Positions 11,372-47,171 of a stretch of 56,616 nt of DNA are shown piece by piece. Under the pieces are notes generated by a model, which was given only the letters and a program-made list of their open reading frames with translations, searched no databases and was not told where the DNA came from. Position numbers and translations under genes: made by a program. This DNA is from an uncultured virus (IMG/VR IMGVR_UViG_3300008448_009815) (lineage: Duplodnaviria > Heunggongvirae > Uroviricota > Caudoviricetes): positions 62,001-118,616 of the IMG/VR virus record IMGVR_UViG_3300008448_009815; one strand, given 5' to 3'. Within the stretch, counting starts at the first letter, position 1. Every line of letters starts with the position of its first letter.

Positions 11372-11383
11372 TGAATTAAAGTG

Positions 11384-18910: not shown

Positions 18911-21349
18911 ATGGCATATATACTCAAAAATACATCTGGTTTAATCAATACAAGAGTTACTGATACAGGTAGACAAAAATTATCTGAAGGTAACTTTAAC
19001 ATTGCGTATTTCCAAGTTGGGGATAGTGAAGTATCGTACAATGCATTATCGTCAACATATAATCAACCATATAGTATGGTATTGGAACCACCATTTAATA
19101 GTCAAAATAGTGCTGGTTCACCACAATCAAATAGACAAAATGTTAAATACCCTTATTATGTAGATGGTTCTGCCGGTAATACATATGGAATTCCTTATAT
19201 GGATTCGGTTATTGAACCTGTATTTAATAGAGCTCCTTTAAGAGGATTTTTTTCAGGAAATACTAGTGCAACCACAATTAGTTGGAGTGCTTTAACTAAC
19301 AATAATTATGTAGTTAGCTCAAACTATGTTGTAAATATGTGTTCTTTAAGTGGAACAAACCAAGTTGAATTAATATATTCTGGTTCTAATTTAATTAATG
19401 AGGGAATACCTTCAGTTGGTGATTTTATTACAATATATTATGACGGTAAATGGGATATAAATAACACTTGTTATAATTTACCAACCCCAACACCATCAGC
19501 GTCCGTCGCATCAACACCGACACCAACCCCAACACCAAGTTCAACGTATACATTTGTGTGTTCGGCAACACCAACGCCAACACCAACTAAGACACCTTGT
19601 TTAACACCATCAAACACACCTGCGTGTCCTCCACCACCTATGGCGGATTGTTATATGTCAATTAATAGTTGTTATCCAATGATGACATATAGAATTATTG
19701 CGTACTGTAACAATGTTATTACTGTTGATAGGAATTTACCTGACTTTTCATCATTTTCTGGGTCATGTTATTCAAGAACATTAATCTATCCACCAAATAT
19801 GACAACACTTTATGATAGTATAACACCGGCACCTCATTGGAGTAGTGATGTTATTAATTTTGAAACTGTTTGTGATATTGATGAGTTTGATGTTAAAATA
19901 TGGAACATGAATATTCCTTGGAGTGAAAATCCTGCAGGTTTATATCCTGCAACATATGAGGGATATGAATATTTTGGATCAATAGATTATCTTGGGACAA
20001 AAGAATATTTTGGATACGCATCAAGTTTGGGACAAAAAGACACTAGTTCGGTATATTACTACAATTCATTTGATGAAAAGATTACGGTACAACCTGAAGA
20101 ACAAAAAGCAATTGCAATAATACATTATACAAATCAAACCATTGACTTCTTCTATGGAGAGAAATTTGCGCTAGAACCATATGATTCCGCAAATCCTGAT
20201 GATACAACAGGACAAGCAAGAAACTTTAAATTACATCTACCTTGGTTGATGTGGCATAAAAATCCTGCGTGTTGTTCGGGAGAAACATTTTGGGTTGATC
20301 CTGCGGGGTTTGAAGATAAAAATCTATTTGATGTCCAATACATACAATCAAATAAAAATTCAGGGATGAATCAACCTGGTATTAGATATTATCATCTTTG
20401 GGATACTCACGCAAATGCTGATGGATACCCAAGTAGAATTGGTAAAGTATTCCCTGATAGTAAGATAGTTATTATTGATGATGAGGAAATAATTGCGGCG
20501 ATGTCATATAAGTCAAATAGAAACTGGACTTTACCAGCACCTCAAGTTTCCTTAGTAACCCCAAATACTTGTGGAACACCAACAACAACGGTAGATGGTA
20601 TCTTAACAGGAAATAACGAAACTATGTATGTGACTTATAGATTCACAAATCAAACTGGTTTTACAGATTCACTACATTGTAATTATTACTCAAAAGTAAT
20701 CGGTAATAATAATGATTGTAATCCTGACACATCTAAAAATGTTGCATTAAGATTTGGTGCGGAATTCGGATGTATGGTACAACCTTCATACAGTGCTGGA
20801 ACACCTTGTATTACTTCTTGTAACTACTTACCTCAAGGATATTTTGGTACTAATTTTGAAATTCTGTGTCAAAAAGTTATAACAGGAAATAGACCTGACT
20901 CAACTCAATGGAGAATAATTGATTATACCGATGTTATTAGTGCGTCAACAATTAATGGATATTTAACTCAAGATGGTATTACAGGCACGACATTCGTAAT
21001 TACACCTGAATTATACAACGCAGCACCATATTATAATTTAAATAATTACATATCCTTAACTACATTAGGATCCACAGGTGAAACATTAAATTTTGGTGAT
21101 GAATTTTATTTTTATGGTGGTTTGGAAACAGATATCCAAGCAACAATATATGAAATGAAATATAAGATTAATTTGAGTAATGCTGAATTCTTAAACACAT
21201 CAAATCCTACTTGGACTCAAGGAACTAAATCATATATTACTGAGATTGCATTATTGGATAGAAATAAAGATATATTAGTAATGTCCAAACTACAATCACC
21301 AGTTCTAAGACAAGGTATCCAACAGTTCGTAGTTAAGTTAGATTTCTAA
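18911..21349 (+). CDS. Baseplate/tail-fibre-attachment-like structural protein with a PT linker
   Basis: N-terminal TDTGRQKL...YFQVGDSE and C-terminal YITEIALLD....LVMSKL..P resemble tail-collar/baseplate fibre-anchor domains. Confidence 0.6.
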   Translation: MAYILKNTSGLINTRVTDTGRQKLSEGNFNIAYFQVGDSEVSYNALSSTYNQPYSMVLEPPFNSQNSAGSPQSNRQNVKYPYYVDGSAGNTYGIPYMDSVIEPVFNRAPLRGFFSGNTSATTISWSALTNNNYVVSSNYVVNMCSLSGTNQVELIYSGSNLINEGIPSVGDFITIYYDGKWDINNTCYNLPTPTPSASVASTPTPTPTPSSTYTFVCSATPTPTPTKTPCLTPSNTPACPPPPMADCYMSINSCYPMMTYRIIAYCNNVITVDRNLPDFSSFSGSCYSRTLIYPPNMTTLYDSITPAPHWSSDVINFETVCDIDEFDVKIWNMNIPWSENPAGLYPATYEGYEYFGSIDYLGTKEYFGYASSLGQKDTSSVYYYNSFDEKITVQPEEQKAIAIIHYTNQTIDFFYGEKFALEPYDSANPDDTTGQARNFKLHLPWLMWHKNPACCSGETFWVDPAGFEDKNLFDVQYIQSNKNSGMNQPGIRYYHLWDTHANADGYPSRIGKVFPDSKIVIIDDEEIIAAMSYKSNRNWTLPAPQVSLVTPNTCGTPTTTVDGILTGNNETMYVTYRFTNQTGFTDSLHCNYYSKVIGNNNDCNPDTSKNVALRFGAEFGCMVQPSYSAGTPCITSCNYLPQGYFGTNFEILCQKVITGNRPDSTQWRIIDYTDVISASTINGYLTQDGITGTTFVITPELYNAAPYYNLNNYISLTTLGSTGETLNFGDEFYFYGGLETDIQATIYEMKYKINLSNAEFLNTSNPTWTQGTKSYITEIALLDRNKDILVMSKLQSPVLRQGIQQFVVKLDF

Positions 21350-42572: not shown

Positions 42573-43502
42573 ATGAATATTCCGAATTATTACGACATAT
42601 TAGGTGTTCCTGAAACTGCAACCCAAGATGAGATAAAAAAAGTATATCGTAAACTGGCAAAAGAAAATCACCCTGATGCTGGTGGTGATGAGGAAAAGTT
42701 TAAGCAAATTGCTGAAGCATATGATACTATTGGTGACGATAACAAACGACAAGAGTATGATATGAGAAGAAAGAACCCATTTGCAGGAATGGGAGGAGGT
42801 GACGATATATTCCAACAGATGTTTAATCAGGCATTTGGTAATCGTAGACAAAAAAATGTGGTACATGATTTAGTTATTGATACTGAATTAAAAGTTACTG
42901 AATCATATTTGGGTGCGAATAAAGAAATCACATATCGTAGGAAATTAAAATGTGATCCATGTAATGGTAGTGGGGGTGAGAAGAAAATTTGTCCCGAATG
43001 TAATGGACAAGGTTCTGTAGTGAGACAGATGGGGTCTGGTATGTTTATACAAATGGTACAAGTTGCTTGTAACACTTGTTCAGGACATGGACGAGTTATT
43101 ACAAATCCTTGTCATATTTGTAATGGTAGTGGGACTAAAGATGAGATGAAAACTGTTGAAGTTAAATTACCTAATGGTATTGATGATGGACAATTCATCC
43201 GATTACAAGGTGTTGGGGATTTTAGAAACGGTGTTTATGGTAACTTAGTTGTTAGAGTTAAATTGGTTTCTGATAATAATTTTGAAAAGTACGGACCTCA
43301 CTTAATTTATAATGCTTATTTCACATTGGATGATTTGAAGAAGAGTGATTTTGAAATACCTCATCCTGACGGTACGGTAAGGTTAAGATTCCCAAAGACA
43401 TTTGATACAACAAAACCCTTAAGAGTTAAATCAAAAGGGTTTAAAGGTGAAGTGATAGGTGACTTGTTGGTTAACCAGCATGTCCGATTTGAAAGGGATT
43501 AA
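42573..43502 (+). CDS. dnaJ: DnaJ chaperone (type I)
   Basis: J domain with HPD, G/F region, four CxxCxGxG repeats and a C-terminal domain. Confidence 0.95.
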   Translation: MNIPNYYDILGVPETATQDEIKKVYRKLAKENHPDAGGDEEKFKQIAEAYDTIGDDNKRQEYDMRRKNPFAGMGGGDDIFQQMFNQAFGNRRQKNVVHDLVIDTELKVTESYLGANKEITYRRKLKCDPCNGSGGEKKICPECNGQGSVVRQMGSGMFIQMVQVACNTCSGHGRVITNPCHICNGSGTKDEMKTVEVKLPNGIDDGQFIRLQGVGDFRNGVYGNLVVRVKLVSDNNFEKYGPHLIYNAYFTLDDLKKSDFEIPHPDGTVRLRFPKTFDTTKPLRVKSKGFKGEVIGDLLVNQHVRFERD

Positions 43503-43679: not shown

Positions 43680-44165
43680 TTATTTTTGATAATAAATAAT
43701 TATATCACCAATTATTTTATAAGTGAATGATTGGTTAATAATTGATTCTCTTATCACAATATCATCATTTCTTGTTATTATAATCTCTCTAGTGTTAACA
43801 TTATTGAATAATTTTTTTGGGTGACGGATTGAGGTATTTATTGTTATTTTAAGATTATTATTTTTTATGTTGTAATGAGTAAATAATTGATAATCAAAAC
43901 CTAAACGGTAATCACGAATCAATAATGCACATTTATGTTTACAGGTATTAAATAAAATAAATGATTGATTAATTAAAACATCGTATATGTCCGACATTGA
44001 GTCCATGATTTCATCCGTTGGGACTCTAATAAATTCACCACTACCGGTAATAGCTCGGAAAGATTCATAAGTTTGAACGATACTCAATGGTTGACCATTA
44101 ATGGTAACATTTTTAATAGGAACACTCTCAACAATTATACTCTTAAGTAATGGTAATAAATTCAT
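43680..44165 (-). CDS. Hypothetical late protein (MNLLPLLKSIIVES leader)
   Basis: ATG 6 nt after minus-strand TATTTATA (44172-44179). Confidence 0.6.
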   Translation of the reverse strand: MNLLPLLKSIIVESVPIKNVTINGQPLSIVQTYESFRAITGSGEFIRVPTDEIMDSMSDIYDVLINQSFILFNTCKHKCALLIRDYRLGFDYQLFTHYNIKNNNLKITINTSIRHPKKLFNNVNTREIIITRNDDIVIRESIINQSFTYKIIGDIIIYYQK

Positions 44166-44180
44166 ATATAATATAAATAC

Positions 44181-44210
44181 AAGAAACCCCACCTTTTTAG
44201 AGATGGGGTT
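44181..44210 (-). terminator. Intrinsic terminator
   Basis: Minus strand AACCCCA-tctctaaaaagg-TGGGGTT-TCTT. Confidence 0.65.
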
Positions 44211-44214
44211 ACAA

Positions 44215-44335
44215 TTATTTCATTCCTAAAATTGAGGTAATCAACCCAGACCGATTCACCCAGTCATTAGCGGTCAGTTTGTTTAATAGGATTCTGACAA
44301 CCTGTTGATAATATTGATTACTCAACCACATCAAC
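44215..44335 (-). ncRNA. Candidate structured small RNA (alternatively a 38-aa micro-ORF, 44215..44331)
   Basis: Bounded by a consensus host promoter and a terminator; 12-bp closing stem (44314-44325 with 44232-44244) with one bulged C. Confidence 0.45.
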
Positions 44336-44339
44336 AATA

Positions 44340-44370
44340 CAAAGATAGTGAAGTTTTTGGTTCTGCCAAA
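44340..44370 (-). promoter_or_regulatory. Bacteroidota-type promoter TTTG-N19-TATCTTTG
   Basis: Exact consensus on the minus strand. Confidence 0.75.
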
Positions 44371-44437: not shown

Positions 44438-45277
44438 ATGTTAAGTTATATCGGAGGTAAGAGTAAAATTGGAAAGTGGATAGTCCCTTTCTATGATAAT
44501 AATATGGAAACATATGTTGAAACATTCGGAGGGATGTTTTGGTGTTTCTTCAACATGGACTTAAAACAGTTCCCAAACCTAAAGAAAGTTGTTTATAACG
44601 ACTTTAATCCACTTAATTACAATCTGTTTAAATGTATTCAGAACCCAACTGAATTATTGAATGCAATTAACGCAATTGATTGTCAGAAATTTGGTGTAGA
44701 AGTAACTCCACCAATTTATAAAGAACAGTTTATCAGGTTTCAGGCTGAAATTTTTAGTGAAGGTTTCAGTGTAGAACCTGGTAATTATGAAGTTGCTGCT
44801 AAATACGCTTATGTCCTTACACAGGTTTTTAGTGGTTCTAAACCTGAGACAAGTTCATTCATTGACTTGAAAGGTAAATACAAATCAAAGTATCTTACAT
44901 TTAGAGATAAATTATCTAAACCTGATTGGGTAGAACATTTCTTGAAAATTACGGATGTTGAAAATATGGATTTTGAGGATGTCATTAAAAAGTATGATTC
45001 ACCAACAACATATTTTTATGTTGATCCACCATATTGGAAAACTGAAAATTACTATTCAAATCACGATTTTGACAGAGAAGATCATGAAAGACTTGCAAAT
45101 ATATTAAAAGGAATGGAAGGTAAATTTAGTTTGTCGTATTATGACTTCCCGTTGTTATCGGAATGGTTCCCTAAAGAACAATATAGTTGGGAGAAAAAAG
45201 AATTCGCTAAGGCGGCGGCAGCCAAAAAAGGTACCAAACAAAATATGGGTGAAGAATTACTTATACTGAATTATTAA
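44438..45277 (+). CDS. Dam-like (D12 class) DNA adenine methyltransferase
   Basis: YIGGKS, YVETFGG, VYND, ENMDF, FYVDPPY and LSY motifs. Confidence 0.9.
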   Translation: MLSYIGGKSKIGKWIVPFYDNNMETYVETFGGMFWCFFNMDLKQFPNLKKVVYNDFNPLNYNLFKCIQNPTELLNAINAIDCQKFGVEVTPPIYKEQFIRFQAEIFSEGFSVEPGNYEVAAKYAYVLTQVFSGSKPETSSFIDLKGKYKSKYLTFRDKLSKPDWVEHFLKITDVENMDFEDVIKKYDSPTTYFYVDPPYWKTENYYSNHDFDREDHERLANILKGMEGKFSLSYYDFPLLSEWFPKEQYSWEKKEFAKAAAAKKGTKQNMGEELLILNY

Positions 45278-45326: not shown

Positions 45327-47171
45327 ATGAAATTAGTAAAAATTTTATCATCGGTAATCGTAGAAAATGTTGATCCTAAATTTAGATTAACAGAAATATC
45401 AAATAAATTAATGAATCAACTTGTCCTTAAATTTAGTAACGAAACTAAAGATTCTGAGGATGATATTAAAAGTTATATTGGTGATTTTGATAAATATAAA
45501 AACGGATTACCTGCCGACAAACGAGACATTACAAAATATACATATGATCAACTTAAGTCTGTGATTTTATCAAAAAGAGTTAAGAAGGAAGAAGGTGATA
45601 TATTTAAAACCTATATGAAGGGTCCTGGTAAAGGTTCTGATCAAAGACAAGTTAAGTCTATGATTAAGAAATTCTTAGAGATAAGAAATTATCTACCTGA
45701 ACCTAATAGGGATATTATGAGATACCCTTATTTGAAGTTGGTTGAATTGATACAAAATAAATTTGGTGGAATTATTACCAAGGCGGCATTTGAAAAATAT
45801 AAGAAAGAAAGAAACGATTTAACAAACGAGCAAATACTTTCTTACATTGAAAGATATGTTGATTTGTATGATAGATTGGAAGCAAATACGCCACCGATTA
45901 TGTTAATGTCATTTGATGAGTTGGAGGCGGCATTGGATCATTTACCTGACGGAGATGATACACCAAAGAAAAAAGGTGACGACTTTAAAGATATTGAAAC
46001 AATCTACGATAAAGATAATTTGTATATCTTCAAACCAAACGGTAAAGAACAATGTATTAGATTAGCACATGGAAGACCTTGGTGTACATCAAGAATTGGT
46101 GGTGGTAACTTATATTACAACTATCGTTTGGAAAATAACTTAACACTTTACTATGTTATTGACAGAGATACCCCATTTGATGATTTGAACTTCGCGGTTG
46201 TTATCTTGGTTGATGAGTATGGAAGAAAAAGAATTGCCGATGGTAAAAACATGGCTGGTGGATATTCAGGACACAGAACAGAGACTTGGGATACAATCTC
46301 ATCTAAAGTTCCGAAGTTAAAAGACAAAGAATACTTATTTACTCCAGATCCACTTACTGATAGAGAAAAAGGATTATTAAGAAAATACAAACATATTAAT
46401 GTTCAAGACGATGCAGTTAAAGAACTTGGTTCGGTTGAAGATGCTGAGTTTTGGTTAGAAATTGCAAGTCCAAACCTAACAAACAAACCAAGAGTTTATA
46501 TTAATTTACCTTCAGAACTTAAAAAGAAATATATTTCTTTGGGTATGGATTTAACAGGTGATATGATTACAAGTTCAGAACCTGATGTTGTTAAATATTA
46601 TTTGGCAAGAAAGATTGATTCGTTGAGAACCAAAACTTTAAATAATCTTACCACCGCGGATATTGCTTTGATTAATATGCCGGGAATGAAAAATCTTAAG
46701 GAAGAACTTAAGGTTAAATATGCCGGACAGTTGGCAACAGAAGGTGACAACATTGTTAAGATTACATACCCGAATGATGCGTCATCAAAATATATTGCAT
46801 TGTTTGGTTTTGATGAATTATTTGAAAATTTACCTGAAAGTATTACATATTTAACAATATCAAATAAATCAAACGATTCTCTTGATTTGGATATACCGGC
46901 AAGCATTGGTAAGTTTACAAATATAATAGCATTGGTACTTGAGAATTGTGTAAAATCACTACCTGAAGAATTAGGAAGAATGGAAGGATTAACATTCCTA
47001 ACATTACAGAATAATAAAAATCTTCAAAGTCTACCTGAGTCTTTAGCGGATTTAGAGTATTTGGATCTTATTGCGTTATCGGGATCAAATCCAAGTGTTG
47101 TAATACCTGAAAGATTAAAGAATATGATGGTTGAAGAAGGTGATGGTTTTTACTATATTTCAAGAGACTAA
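45327..47171 (+). CDS. Protein with a PcfJ-like WCT domain and C-terminal leucine-rich repeats
   Basis: PWCTS...YYNY...LYYVID motif; LRRs IPASIGKFTNIIALVL, LPEELGRMEGLTFLTL, LPESLADLEYLDLIAL; TATTTATA at 45306. Confidence 0.7.
   Translation: MKLVKILSSVIVENVDPKFRLTEISNKLMNQLVLKFSNETKDSEDDIKSYIGDFDKYKNGLPADKRDITKYTYDQLKSVILSKRVKKEEGDIFKTYMKGPGKGSDQRQVKSMIKKFLEIRNYLPEPNRDIMRYPYLKLVELIQNKFGGIITKAAFEKYKKERNDLTNEQILSYIERYVDLYDRLEANTPPIMLMSFDELEAALDHLPDGDDTPKKKGDDFKDIETIYDKDNLYIFKPNGKEQCIRLAHGRPWCTSRIGGGNLYYNYRLENNLTLYYVIDRDTPFDDLNFAVVILVDEYGRKRIADGKNMAGGYSGHRTETWDTISSKVPKLKDKEYLFTPDPLTDREKGLLRKYKHINVQDDAVKELGSVEDAEFWLEIASPNLTNKPRVYINLPSELKKKYISLGMDLTGDMITSSEPDVVKYYLARKIDSLRTKTLNNLTTADIALINMPGMKNLKEELKVKYAGQLATEGDNIVKITYPNDASSKYIALFGFDELFENLPESITYLTISNKSNDSLDLDIPASIGKFTNIIALVLENCVKSLPEELGRMEGLTFLTLQNNKNLQSLPESLADLEYLDLIALSGSNPSVVIPERLKNMMVEEGDGFYYISRD

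Follow-up and report, generated by a model that had tools for sequence, protein, structure and literature searches.

What does a stretch of about 150 nt do in a phage genome when it has a promoter and a terminator to itself but no conserved reading frame? The question arises on the minus strand at positions 44181-44370 of a 56,616-nt window (the whole stretch of DNA analysed here, bases 62001-118616 of the 118.6-kb IMG/VR virus record IMGVR_UViG_3300008448_009815; 31% GC, estimated 40% complete), the sequence of which is also contained in a 304-kb contig rated 100% complete. An earlier note, made from the sequence alone, had proposed that this region encodes a stand-alone structured non-coding RNA. 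That proposal held: the region has its own promoter and terminator, its helices covary among relatives and its open reading frame (ORF) is not conserved, and we are nearly certain that this structured RNA gene of large freshwater phages is real. We also consider it very probable that the RNA forms a functional pair with a 161-aa protein (motif TINTSIxHPK) encoded on the same strand at 43680..44165, the next gene after the RNA terminator.

The RNA gene and its family

Relatives of the RNA were gathered in four ways: beside the D12-class adenine methyltransferase gene that lies near the RNA gene (44438-45277, plus strand), by scanning viral contigs with two DNA patterns, by scanning metagenome contigs with a single pattern, and through the neighbouring protein. 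The resulting set, from viral and metagenome contigs, comprises 52 distinct full units (alignment A2) and 55 distinct arrays. Units are 88-90 nt long and align almost without gaps, and the family model, R1, matches the window at 44217-44304 with 87.2 bits. A second R1 match in the same record (19075-19141, plus strand; 15.9 bits, E 0.13) is probably noise.

Across A2, 96.2% of cells are paired, compared with 89.5% in shuffled alignments (none of 500 gets as high) and 30-56% in controls with slid partners. The shuffle control overstates the significance because the aligned sequences are related; the slid controls and the double changes are independent of this kinship. Compensatory changes, a check proposed in the earlier note, were found in three helices. 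In hairpin 2, all six pairs show changes on both sides, as do three of the four pairs in the last hairpin of domain B, and the closing pair of the GGGU/ACCY hairpin varies among GC (23), GU (22) and AU (6). The GUCAG/CUGAC helix does not vary in the close set, and distant relatives compensate it (GUUAG/CUAAC, GUUGG/CCAAC, GGUCAUGG/CCUGACC). The near-invariant AGGA/UCCU is compatible with pairing (AU 49, GU 2, GC 1) and probably makes an H-type pseudoknot with the GUCAG/CUGAC hairpin; an RYY triplet could pair equally with G3G4U6 or with GGU of the hairpin-2 loop (98% of cells each). Folding of the window RNA gave a minimum free energy (MFE) of -42.3 kcal/mol (z -2.68; 2 of 200 shuffles as good), and the MFE structure of the window sequence alone has the same helices as the family model.

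The transcript is about 150 nt long (44181-44335, minus strand) and runs from a 5' hairpin through domain A and domain B to the terminator. The leader hairpin P0 (44304..44335 in the MFE fold; GUUGAUG...UAUCAAC enclosing UUGAG/AUCAA) abuts the conserved unit. Leaders vary by lineage, with 24 distinct sequences where a promoter exists, most of which fold as a hairpin whose 3' end lies just ahead of AGG; other lineages have the unit immediately after the stop codon of the upstream gene. Domain A (57 nt, 44248..44304, minus strand, supported by the R1 match and covariation) consists, in order, of the invariant (A/G)GGA that opens each unit, the GUCAG/CUGAC hairpin, the RYY triplet and a 6-bp hairpin 2 with a GGUGARN loop. 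In the window, domain A reads AGG(U)..UCCU, and hairpin 2 is GACUG/CGGUC with the loop GGUGAAU. The loop of the GUCAG/CUGAC hairpin is A-rich (16 nt in the window, 18 nt in most relatives) and carries UCCUA and ACAAU. Domain B (~31 nt, 44217..44247, minus strand, supported by hairpin comparison) comprises in the window a GGGU-UGAUU-ACCU hairpin, an invariant CAA, an AUUU-UAG-GAAU hairpin and UGAAAU, corresponding in the family to GGGU-loop-ACCY, CAA, a 3-4-bp hairpin and UGAAA. Long invariant stretches are single-stranded (UCCUA, ACAAUCUGA, GGUG, CAA and UGAAA).

This anatomy departs for the most part from that drawn in the earlier note. Of its two inner stems, GUCAG/CUGAC was recovered and GACCG/CGGUC was not, the covarying hairpin being GACUG/CGGUC. 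The note had enclosed both in a 12-bp outer stem, and the complementarity does exist (UUGAGUAAUCAA, 44325-44314, with UUGAUUACCUCAA, 44244-44232; 12 pairs, one bulged C). As an RNA structure, however, the stem is missing from the MFE fold, costs 2 kcal/mol if enforced and is absent from relatives, and it cannot be a family feature because leaders differ or are lacking among them.

Most arrays hold a single unit. Among the 55, 34 have the form A-B, three have A with an aberrant B, six are A-A-B, 11 are A-B-A-B and one is A-A-A-B; domain A is therefore present once in 37 arrays, twice in 17 and three times in 1. Domain B was not supported statistically as a half-repeat of A at the end of the array (mean z 0.91; z > 2 in 7 of 52). 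At four relatives' loci (L275, L301, L331 and L344), a variant hairpin (CAGG-UUGAG..ACAAU..CUCAA) follows one A-B unit, ~90-200 nt after that first unit; it is laid out like domain A but differs in stem sequence and lacks UCCU, and is followed by a long-loop terminator.

The transcript is bracketed by the two signals that the earlier note had pointed out. Its promoter (44340..44370, minus strand, found by pattern scans and kept in relatives) consists of TTTG, 19 nt and TATCTTTG, and reads TTTG-N19-TAtcTTTG from 44370 to 44340. It fits what we take to be the Bacteroidetes -33/-7 consensus and scores only 9 of 12 when scanned for the Escherichia coli sigma-70 consensus. The bare motif is not enriched in the window (6 matches versus 4.1 expected); the promoter region is up to 94% identical in relatives, even at loci without the RNA, and a promoter-like motif lies 5' of 42 of the 55 distinct arrays. 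The intrinsic terminator (44181..44210, minus strand; arms AACCCCAUCU and AGGUGGGGUU, U-rich tail), identified by a terminator scan and in relatives, has a hairpin of 10 pairs at 44210-44185 followed by a T tail. A terminator was found 3' of 47 of the 55 distinct arrays; among the other eight, a long-loop terminator is present in three, the contig breaks off in two, and three continue into a small ORF. The interior is, as had been remarked, richer in GC than other intergenic DNA (0.36-0.39 inside the transcribed region versus 0.14-0.22 in neighbouring intergenic DNA). We infer early transcription from the host-type promoter alone. In metatranscriptomes, two RNA runs contained 10-16% of the sampled words, and in four RNA runs depth was 1.8-4 over the RNA compared with up to ~200 over relatives' methyltransferase, on contigs that carry neither transcript ends nor strand.

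The site of this promoter seems to be one where small early cargo is swapped. Exchange of cargo at the same conserved early promoter is seen at L021:2700-3005 (minus strand), L285, L297 and L300. In some relatives, a 32-aa ORF (MDDLVHHLKNASR...) and a terminator replace the RNA there, and in others the RNA unit is followed directly by this ORF with no terminator between.

Could the region instead encode a peptide? The 38-aa ORF that the earlier note had listed exists (44215..44331, minus strand), as the tail of a 62-aa ORF that begins 5' of the promoter, but it was not kept across homologues and is incidental rather than a gene. A coding role for the 38-aa (or 62-aa) peptide could draw on a frame that stays open in the window and just 2 close relatives, and on a different frame that is open in 9 units. 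It is nevertheless scarcely credible given that none of the three frames is free of stops in 36 of 51 distinct units, that the invariant UGUCAG is read in different frames among relatives owing to a 1-nt indel, that the variable positions are second codon positions (E/V/A/G), and that the unit spacing in tandem arrays is 92 nt, which is not a multiple of three. A peptide conserved at the expense of the stems was not found; the helices covary and the peptide frame is not kept.

The RNA matched no described family in the collections searched. In Rfam 15, a search proposed in the earlier note and run to E ≤ 10 with known ribozymes, riboswitches and ToxI-like entries included, no family came near its gathering score. 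Sub-threshold matches over 44181-44335 were rli52 (24.4 bits versus 70) and rnk_pseudo (18.3 versus 55), and Bacilli-1 (23.5 versus 55.6) fell over the promoter, upstream of the transcript. The suggestion of a Y-RNA-like molecule was not borne out by any YrlA or Y RNA match in Rfam (a TROVE-domain gene was not searched for). By-eye resemblances to what we take to be the 16S rRNA 3' end (ACCUC; ACAAGG), the tRNA T-arm, a CsrA-binding word, Cas13b repeats and the hammerhead core were not relied on. Among bacteria, a strict pattern gave 15 matches in the genomes of 185,579 species (one genome per species), none of them family members (R1 scores of 12-18 bits or none), and R1 gave a single match in 151 Bacteroidota genomes, at 32 bits inside a 361-aa ORF, which is not a member. 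Neither a two-unit RNA array nor the 161-aa protein was matched among GenBank phages, where the methyltransferase alone was matched, in four uncultured huge-phage records. Literature searches returned no description of this RNA or of the RNA-protein pair. IMG/VR contigs, the same kind of viral contigs as here, have been mined for covarying intergenic motifs, yielding in the DNAVirus_X catalogue 8,495 unnamed candidates (PMC10690425), of which our motif may be one. The core word of the RNA does not occur in the searchable files of that article, a search that its alignment supplements lie outside, and the passages of the article consulted describe no paired protein.

The partner protein gene and its setting

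The case for a pair is made by genomic association. A search of viral contigs with the protein alignment recovered 22 loci, and an R1 match adjoins the gene in every one of them. At 13 loci, the RNA lies ~50 nt upstream of the protein gene on the same strand. At the other nine, the RNA (50-56 bits) is on the opposite strand and converges on a gene whose protein is 32-40% identical to that of the window; the two genes share the hairpin at which they end, and the RNA is preceded by a TTTG..TATCTTTG promoter of its own. In each of five phage records, of which three are 91-100% complete at 272-318 kb, the protein gene and the RNA occur once only and are separated by 30-50 nt.

Loci chosen in other ways gave a one-sided picture. 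Of the 80 loci chosen by the methyltransferase, 10 carry both partners and 68 carry neither; the remaining 2 have the RNA alone, and no locus has the protein alone. For 52 distinct arrays, 350 nt or more of downstream sequence is available: the protein gene directly follows 27 of them, lies further on in 3 and was not seen for 22, many of which have a flank of just 453 nt. At the syntenic site, L068, L232, L283 and L332 have the RNA but not the protein, and in four of five orphan-RNA records (17-76% complete) the protein was not found anywhere. The protein was never found without the RNA, either at the 22 loci recovered with it or at the 80 methyltransferase loci. A protein that is never seen without the RNA, and an RNA that is seen alone, would be expected where the protein depends on the RNA but the RNA does not depend on the protein. 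Together with gain and loss of the cassette as a unit, this asymmetry is what a pair of antidote and poison would give.

Type I-like antisense pairing of the RNA with the start of the partner mRNA was tried and rejected, as duplex energies were no better than those of shuffles in 5 of 7 loci (z about -2 in the other 2). Genes of another small protein family (..GGY..F.KLLPDYF..) recur next to the RNA (L209:384-842, L222:378-842, L228:984-1460); they lie upstream of it in orphan-RNA loci, and in L228 the gene separates the RNA from the partner gene. In the convergent subfamily, a leader of ~75 nt separates promoter and unit (L386:1627-1757; L390:1682-1812, minus strand), with a conserved hairpin (CAUC-GAAA-GAUG versus CGUC-GAAA-GACG), and this leader may be a further RNA domain.

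The partner gene has a promoter-like motif of its own, TGTATTTATA (44172..44181, minus strand), 7 nt before its start codon. The pattern T[AG]TATTTATA occurs 11 times in the 118.6-kb record (e.g., at window positions 11382 and 51092), in most cases a few to ~25 nt 5' of an ATG start, and TRTATTTATA is also found 3' of the RNA terminator in relatives. We think this motif is probably a phage-specific promoter (middle or late?), distinct from the host-type TTTG..TAnnTTTG. At L320:1-423, the gene 5' of the RNA ends in a sequence that, read by eye, resembles sigma-70 region 4, which suggests a phage-encoded sigma factor that could read phage-type promoters.

What kind of protein is the partner? Sequence searches with the 161-aa protein gave no Pfam match at E ≤ 1, no PADLOC match, no PHROG family, and nothing in PDB sequence profile or ESM Atlas searches; ten distant relatives likewise gave nothing above the Pfam cut-off. 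The family is small, with 47 clusters at E ≤ 0.001 among 1.84 billion representatives. In 42 sequences, R47 and T111 are invariant and E13, D85, D91, S112 and H115 nearly so. Two AF2 models (pLDDT 81.5 and 86.6) share a beta-alpha-alpha-beta-beta-beta core. Their best VIA-align neighbour is CdiA-CT (Z 5.5 and 5.2; 76-80 residues, rmsd 2.8-3.8), with RelE (Z 4.8 and 4.7) and T4 RegB (PDB 2hx6; Z 4.0 and 3.7) among the others, all of these Z scores being under 8, a range where a match can be a common arrangement. The neighbour lists also hold ParE, HigB, BrnT, YoeB, YafQ, MqsR and a colicin-type RNase, and, judged by entry titles, small RNase toxins make up about half of one top 50 and many of the other. 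In BFVD, a RegB-annotated phage protein was matched (E 0.07, probability 0.92), as were uncharacterised phage proteins including one of a Tenacibaculum phage (E 1.1e-3). We tentatively regard the protein as a small RelE/RegB-like endoribonuclease, a lead from predicted structures and not a finding.

The wider surroundings are those of a large phage. A DnaJ homologue is encoded at 42573-43502 (plus strand) in the region of the RNA gene, and no tRNA or tmRNA was found in the window with ARAGORN. Aquatic jumbo phages with DnaJ/DnaK have predicted hosts among Bacteroidota according to a 2025 report (PMC12619734), which agrees with the Bacteroidetes-type promoter in the window. The phage that carries the RNA has a genome of roughly 300 kb and probably infects Bacteroidota. 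The two genes that flank the methyltransferase gene encode the 161-aa protein (gene start at 44165) and a 614-aa protein with C-terminal leucine-rich repeats (45327-47171). They begin with like N-termini (MNLLPLLKSIIVESV and MKLVKILSSVIVENV), found in only these 2 of the record's 116 ORFs of at least 80 aa, and beyond them the two proteins are unrelated to each other. The neighbour proteins of relatives often begin MK.LIR.ILKEE.

Possible functions of the pair

We tentatively favour a reading in which the RNA is an antitoxin-like partner of the adjacent phage endoribonuclease, with confidence that falls somewhat short of even. The RNA would bind the 161-aa protein as a sequence-specific pseudo-substrate or inhibitor, much as type III antitoxin RNAs do with their endoribonucleases; the host-type promoter would yield the RNA first, the protein gene would be read from the phage-type promoter, and domain A copy number (1 to 3) would set the dose. 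The earlier note had offered an antitoxin mimic as one option. Its antitoxin-like part agrees with the genomic context, but the mimicry of a host antitoxin does not, the RNA appearing to have its cognate partner in the RNase-like protein that the phage itself encodes next to it, which the note had not remarked on.

Several observations weigh against this reading. The 22 loci amount to about 12 distinct sequence groups from related phages, and common descent of one inherited cassette could explain part of the adjacency, although it would not easily explain its survival through an inversion. The RNA-only records are 17-76% complete, and the protein might be encoded elsewhere in those genomes. 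A single unit is found in most arrays (37 of 55), unlike classic repeat arrays. For the protein, Foldseek returned nothing at E ≤ 0.001 against PDB, comparison of the protein alignment with T4 RegB by hhalign gave a probability of 0.3% over 6 columns, and there was no ToxN-, CptN- or TenpN-like match and no similarity in Pfam, PADLOC, PHROGs or PDB sequences. The nuclease assignment is a lead only because the structural Z scores are under 8, the Foldseek search is empty and the RegB profile comparison is negative.

The same pairing evidence (adjacency at all 22 loci, one copy of each gene in all five records) would also suit an RNA that acts not as an inhibitor but as a cofactor, scaffold or guide that the adjacent protein cannot do without, for example in a ribonucleoprotein in which it directs or activates the nuclease, and the long invariant single-stranded stretches could contact protein or target. 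The presence of the RNA where the protein gene is missing would be odd for a cofactor, though those records are incomplete, and the variable copy number of domain A suits the dosage of a binder better than a fixed scaffold; we judge a cofactor role unlikely. A trans-acting phage sRNA or decoy directed at a host factor (an RNA-binding protein, a nuclease or a defence system), its adjacency to the protein gene reflecting a shared variable early cassette, is in our estimate quite unlikely. The RNA does have its own early-type promoter and terminator, was found only in phages in the genome searches and is met in further contexts that lack the protein, where it immediately follows other genes, and tandem copies would suit a sponge. 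Left unexplained are the failure to find the protein without the RNA (0/22, 0/80) and an adjacency kept through inversion of orientation and down to ~30-35% protein identity.

Two further possibilities concern the transcript itself. A cis-regulatory leader (riboswitch, attenuator or autoregulatory element) controlling the downstream gene through the terminator would fit the succession of promoter, structured RNA, terminator and gene on one strand in the window and at 13 of 22 loci, and riboswitches can have tandem aptamers. We nonetheless think it very unlikely, as the RNA converges on the gene at 9 of 22 loci, the gene has a promoter-like motif of its own after the terminator, the RNA also precedes unrelated genes or ends a transcript right after another gene's stop codon, and no conserved antiterminator pairing was seen on inspection of relatives. 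That transcripts are cut into units by the RNA, acting as a self-cleaving ribozyme or a processing signal, seems to us just as improbable. The many invariant nucleotides in a small pseudoknotted domain, even within a helix, and the tandem units at transcript ends would be in keeping with it. No known family in Rfam matched at E ≤ 10, however, the link to the protein would go unexplained, and the hammerhead-like words (GUC, CUGA, GAAA) misfit the core when compared by eye with the hammerhead consensus, because CUGACC lacks the G-A of CUGANGA.

Whichever of these applies, the locus offers a compact RNA-protein pair that is directly testable. The RNA shows very clear covariation and matches no described family, the protein family is tiny and unannotated, and the two occur one-to-one in phage genomes of 270-320 kb. 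What stands at the least is a new family of structured, phage-specific RNAs, for which there are now an alignment, a model and a defined partner gene. If the RNA does neutralise or programme a RelE/RegB-like nuclease, RNA-antitoxin systems would extend past the three known toxin families, and large environmental phages would carry such systems for their own use.

Comparison with known systems

How does this module relate to phage RNAs and RNases that are already known? Like T4 rnaC and rnaD, it includes a short, stable-looking RNA gene in a large phage genome; unlike them, it has a dedicated protein neighbour and no tRNA in the window (rnaC and rnaD are annotated beside a tRNA cluster), and there is no sequence or Rfam relation. 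The comparison with T4 RegB concerns the protein, which is also phage-encoded, of similar size (161 aa versus 153 aa) and weakly alike in fold. According to the T4 record, RegB cleaves a subset of T4 mRNAs at GGAG, and the RNA units described here start with an invariant (A/G)GGA. The two proteins differ in that no sequence-profile similarity was detected between them (hhalign, above), and RegB is not known to have a partner RNA gene.

The closest parallels are with type III toxin-antitoxin systems, in which, according to published accounts, an antitoxin RNA neutralises its endoribonuclease (PMC8860590, PMC3401426, PMC12283969). As in ToxIN, CptIN and TenpIN, there is a gene for a small, structured, probably pseudoknotted RNA with a terminator of its own, and a possible endoribonuclease of ~160 aa is encoded next to it and was never seen without it. 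The characteristic type III arrangement, with the RNA directly 5' of the protein gene on the same strand and a terminator between them, is that of the window and of 13 of the 22 loci. The number of tandem copies varies as it does in type III systems, with two or three domain A copies in 18 of 55 arrays and one in 37. Type III systems are also known in phages. Their repeats are 34-45 nt long, and the unit here, at 57 + 31 nt, is longer.

Other features set the module apart. The protein matches no ToxN, CptN or TenpN model, its weak fold neighbours being of the RelE/BECR type; ToxN/AbiQ, CptN and TenpN were not among the top 50 structural neighbours, a result that leaves lower ranks aside. Most arrays contain one unit, and in one subfamily the two genes are convergent and not co-transcribed. 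We place the module outside the known type III families because the protein matches none of their toxins and repeats occur in only a third of arrays, and we suggest by analogy that it works like a type III RNA-antitoxin without being a member of those families. A bolder version, which we think rather unlikely, is that the pair represents a fourth, phage-borne type III-like family with a toxin of RelE/RegB fold, in which the 57-nt double-pseudoknot unit would serve as an uncleavable or slowly cleaved target mimic and with which jumbo phages of Bacteroidota would time the destruction of host RNA or exclude competing phages.

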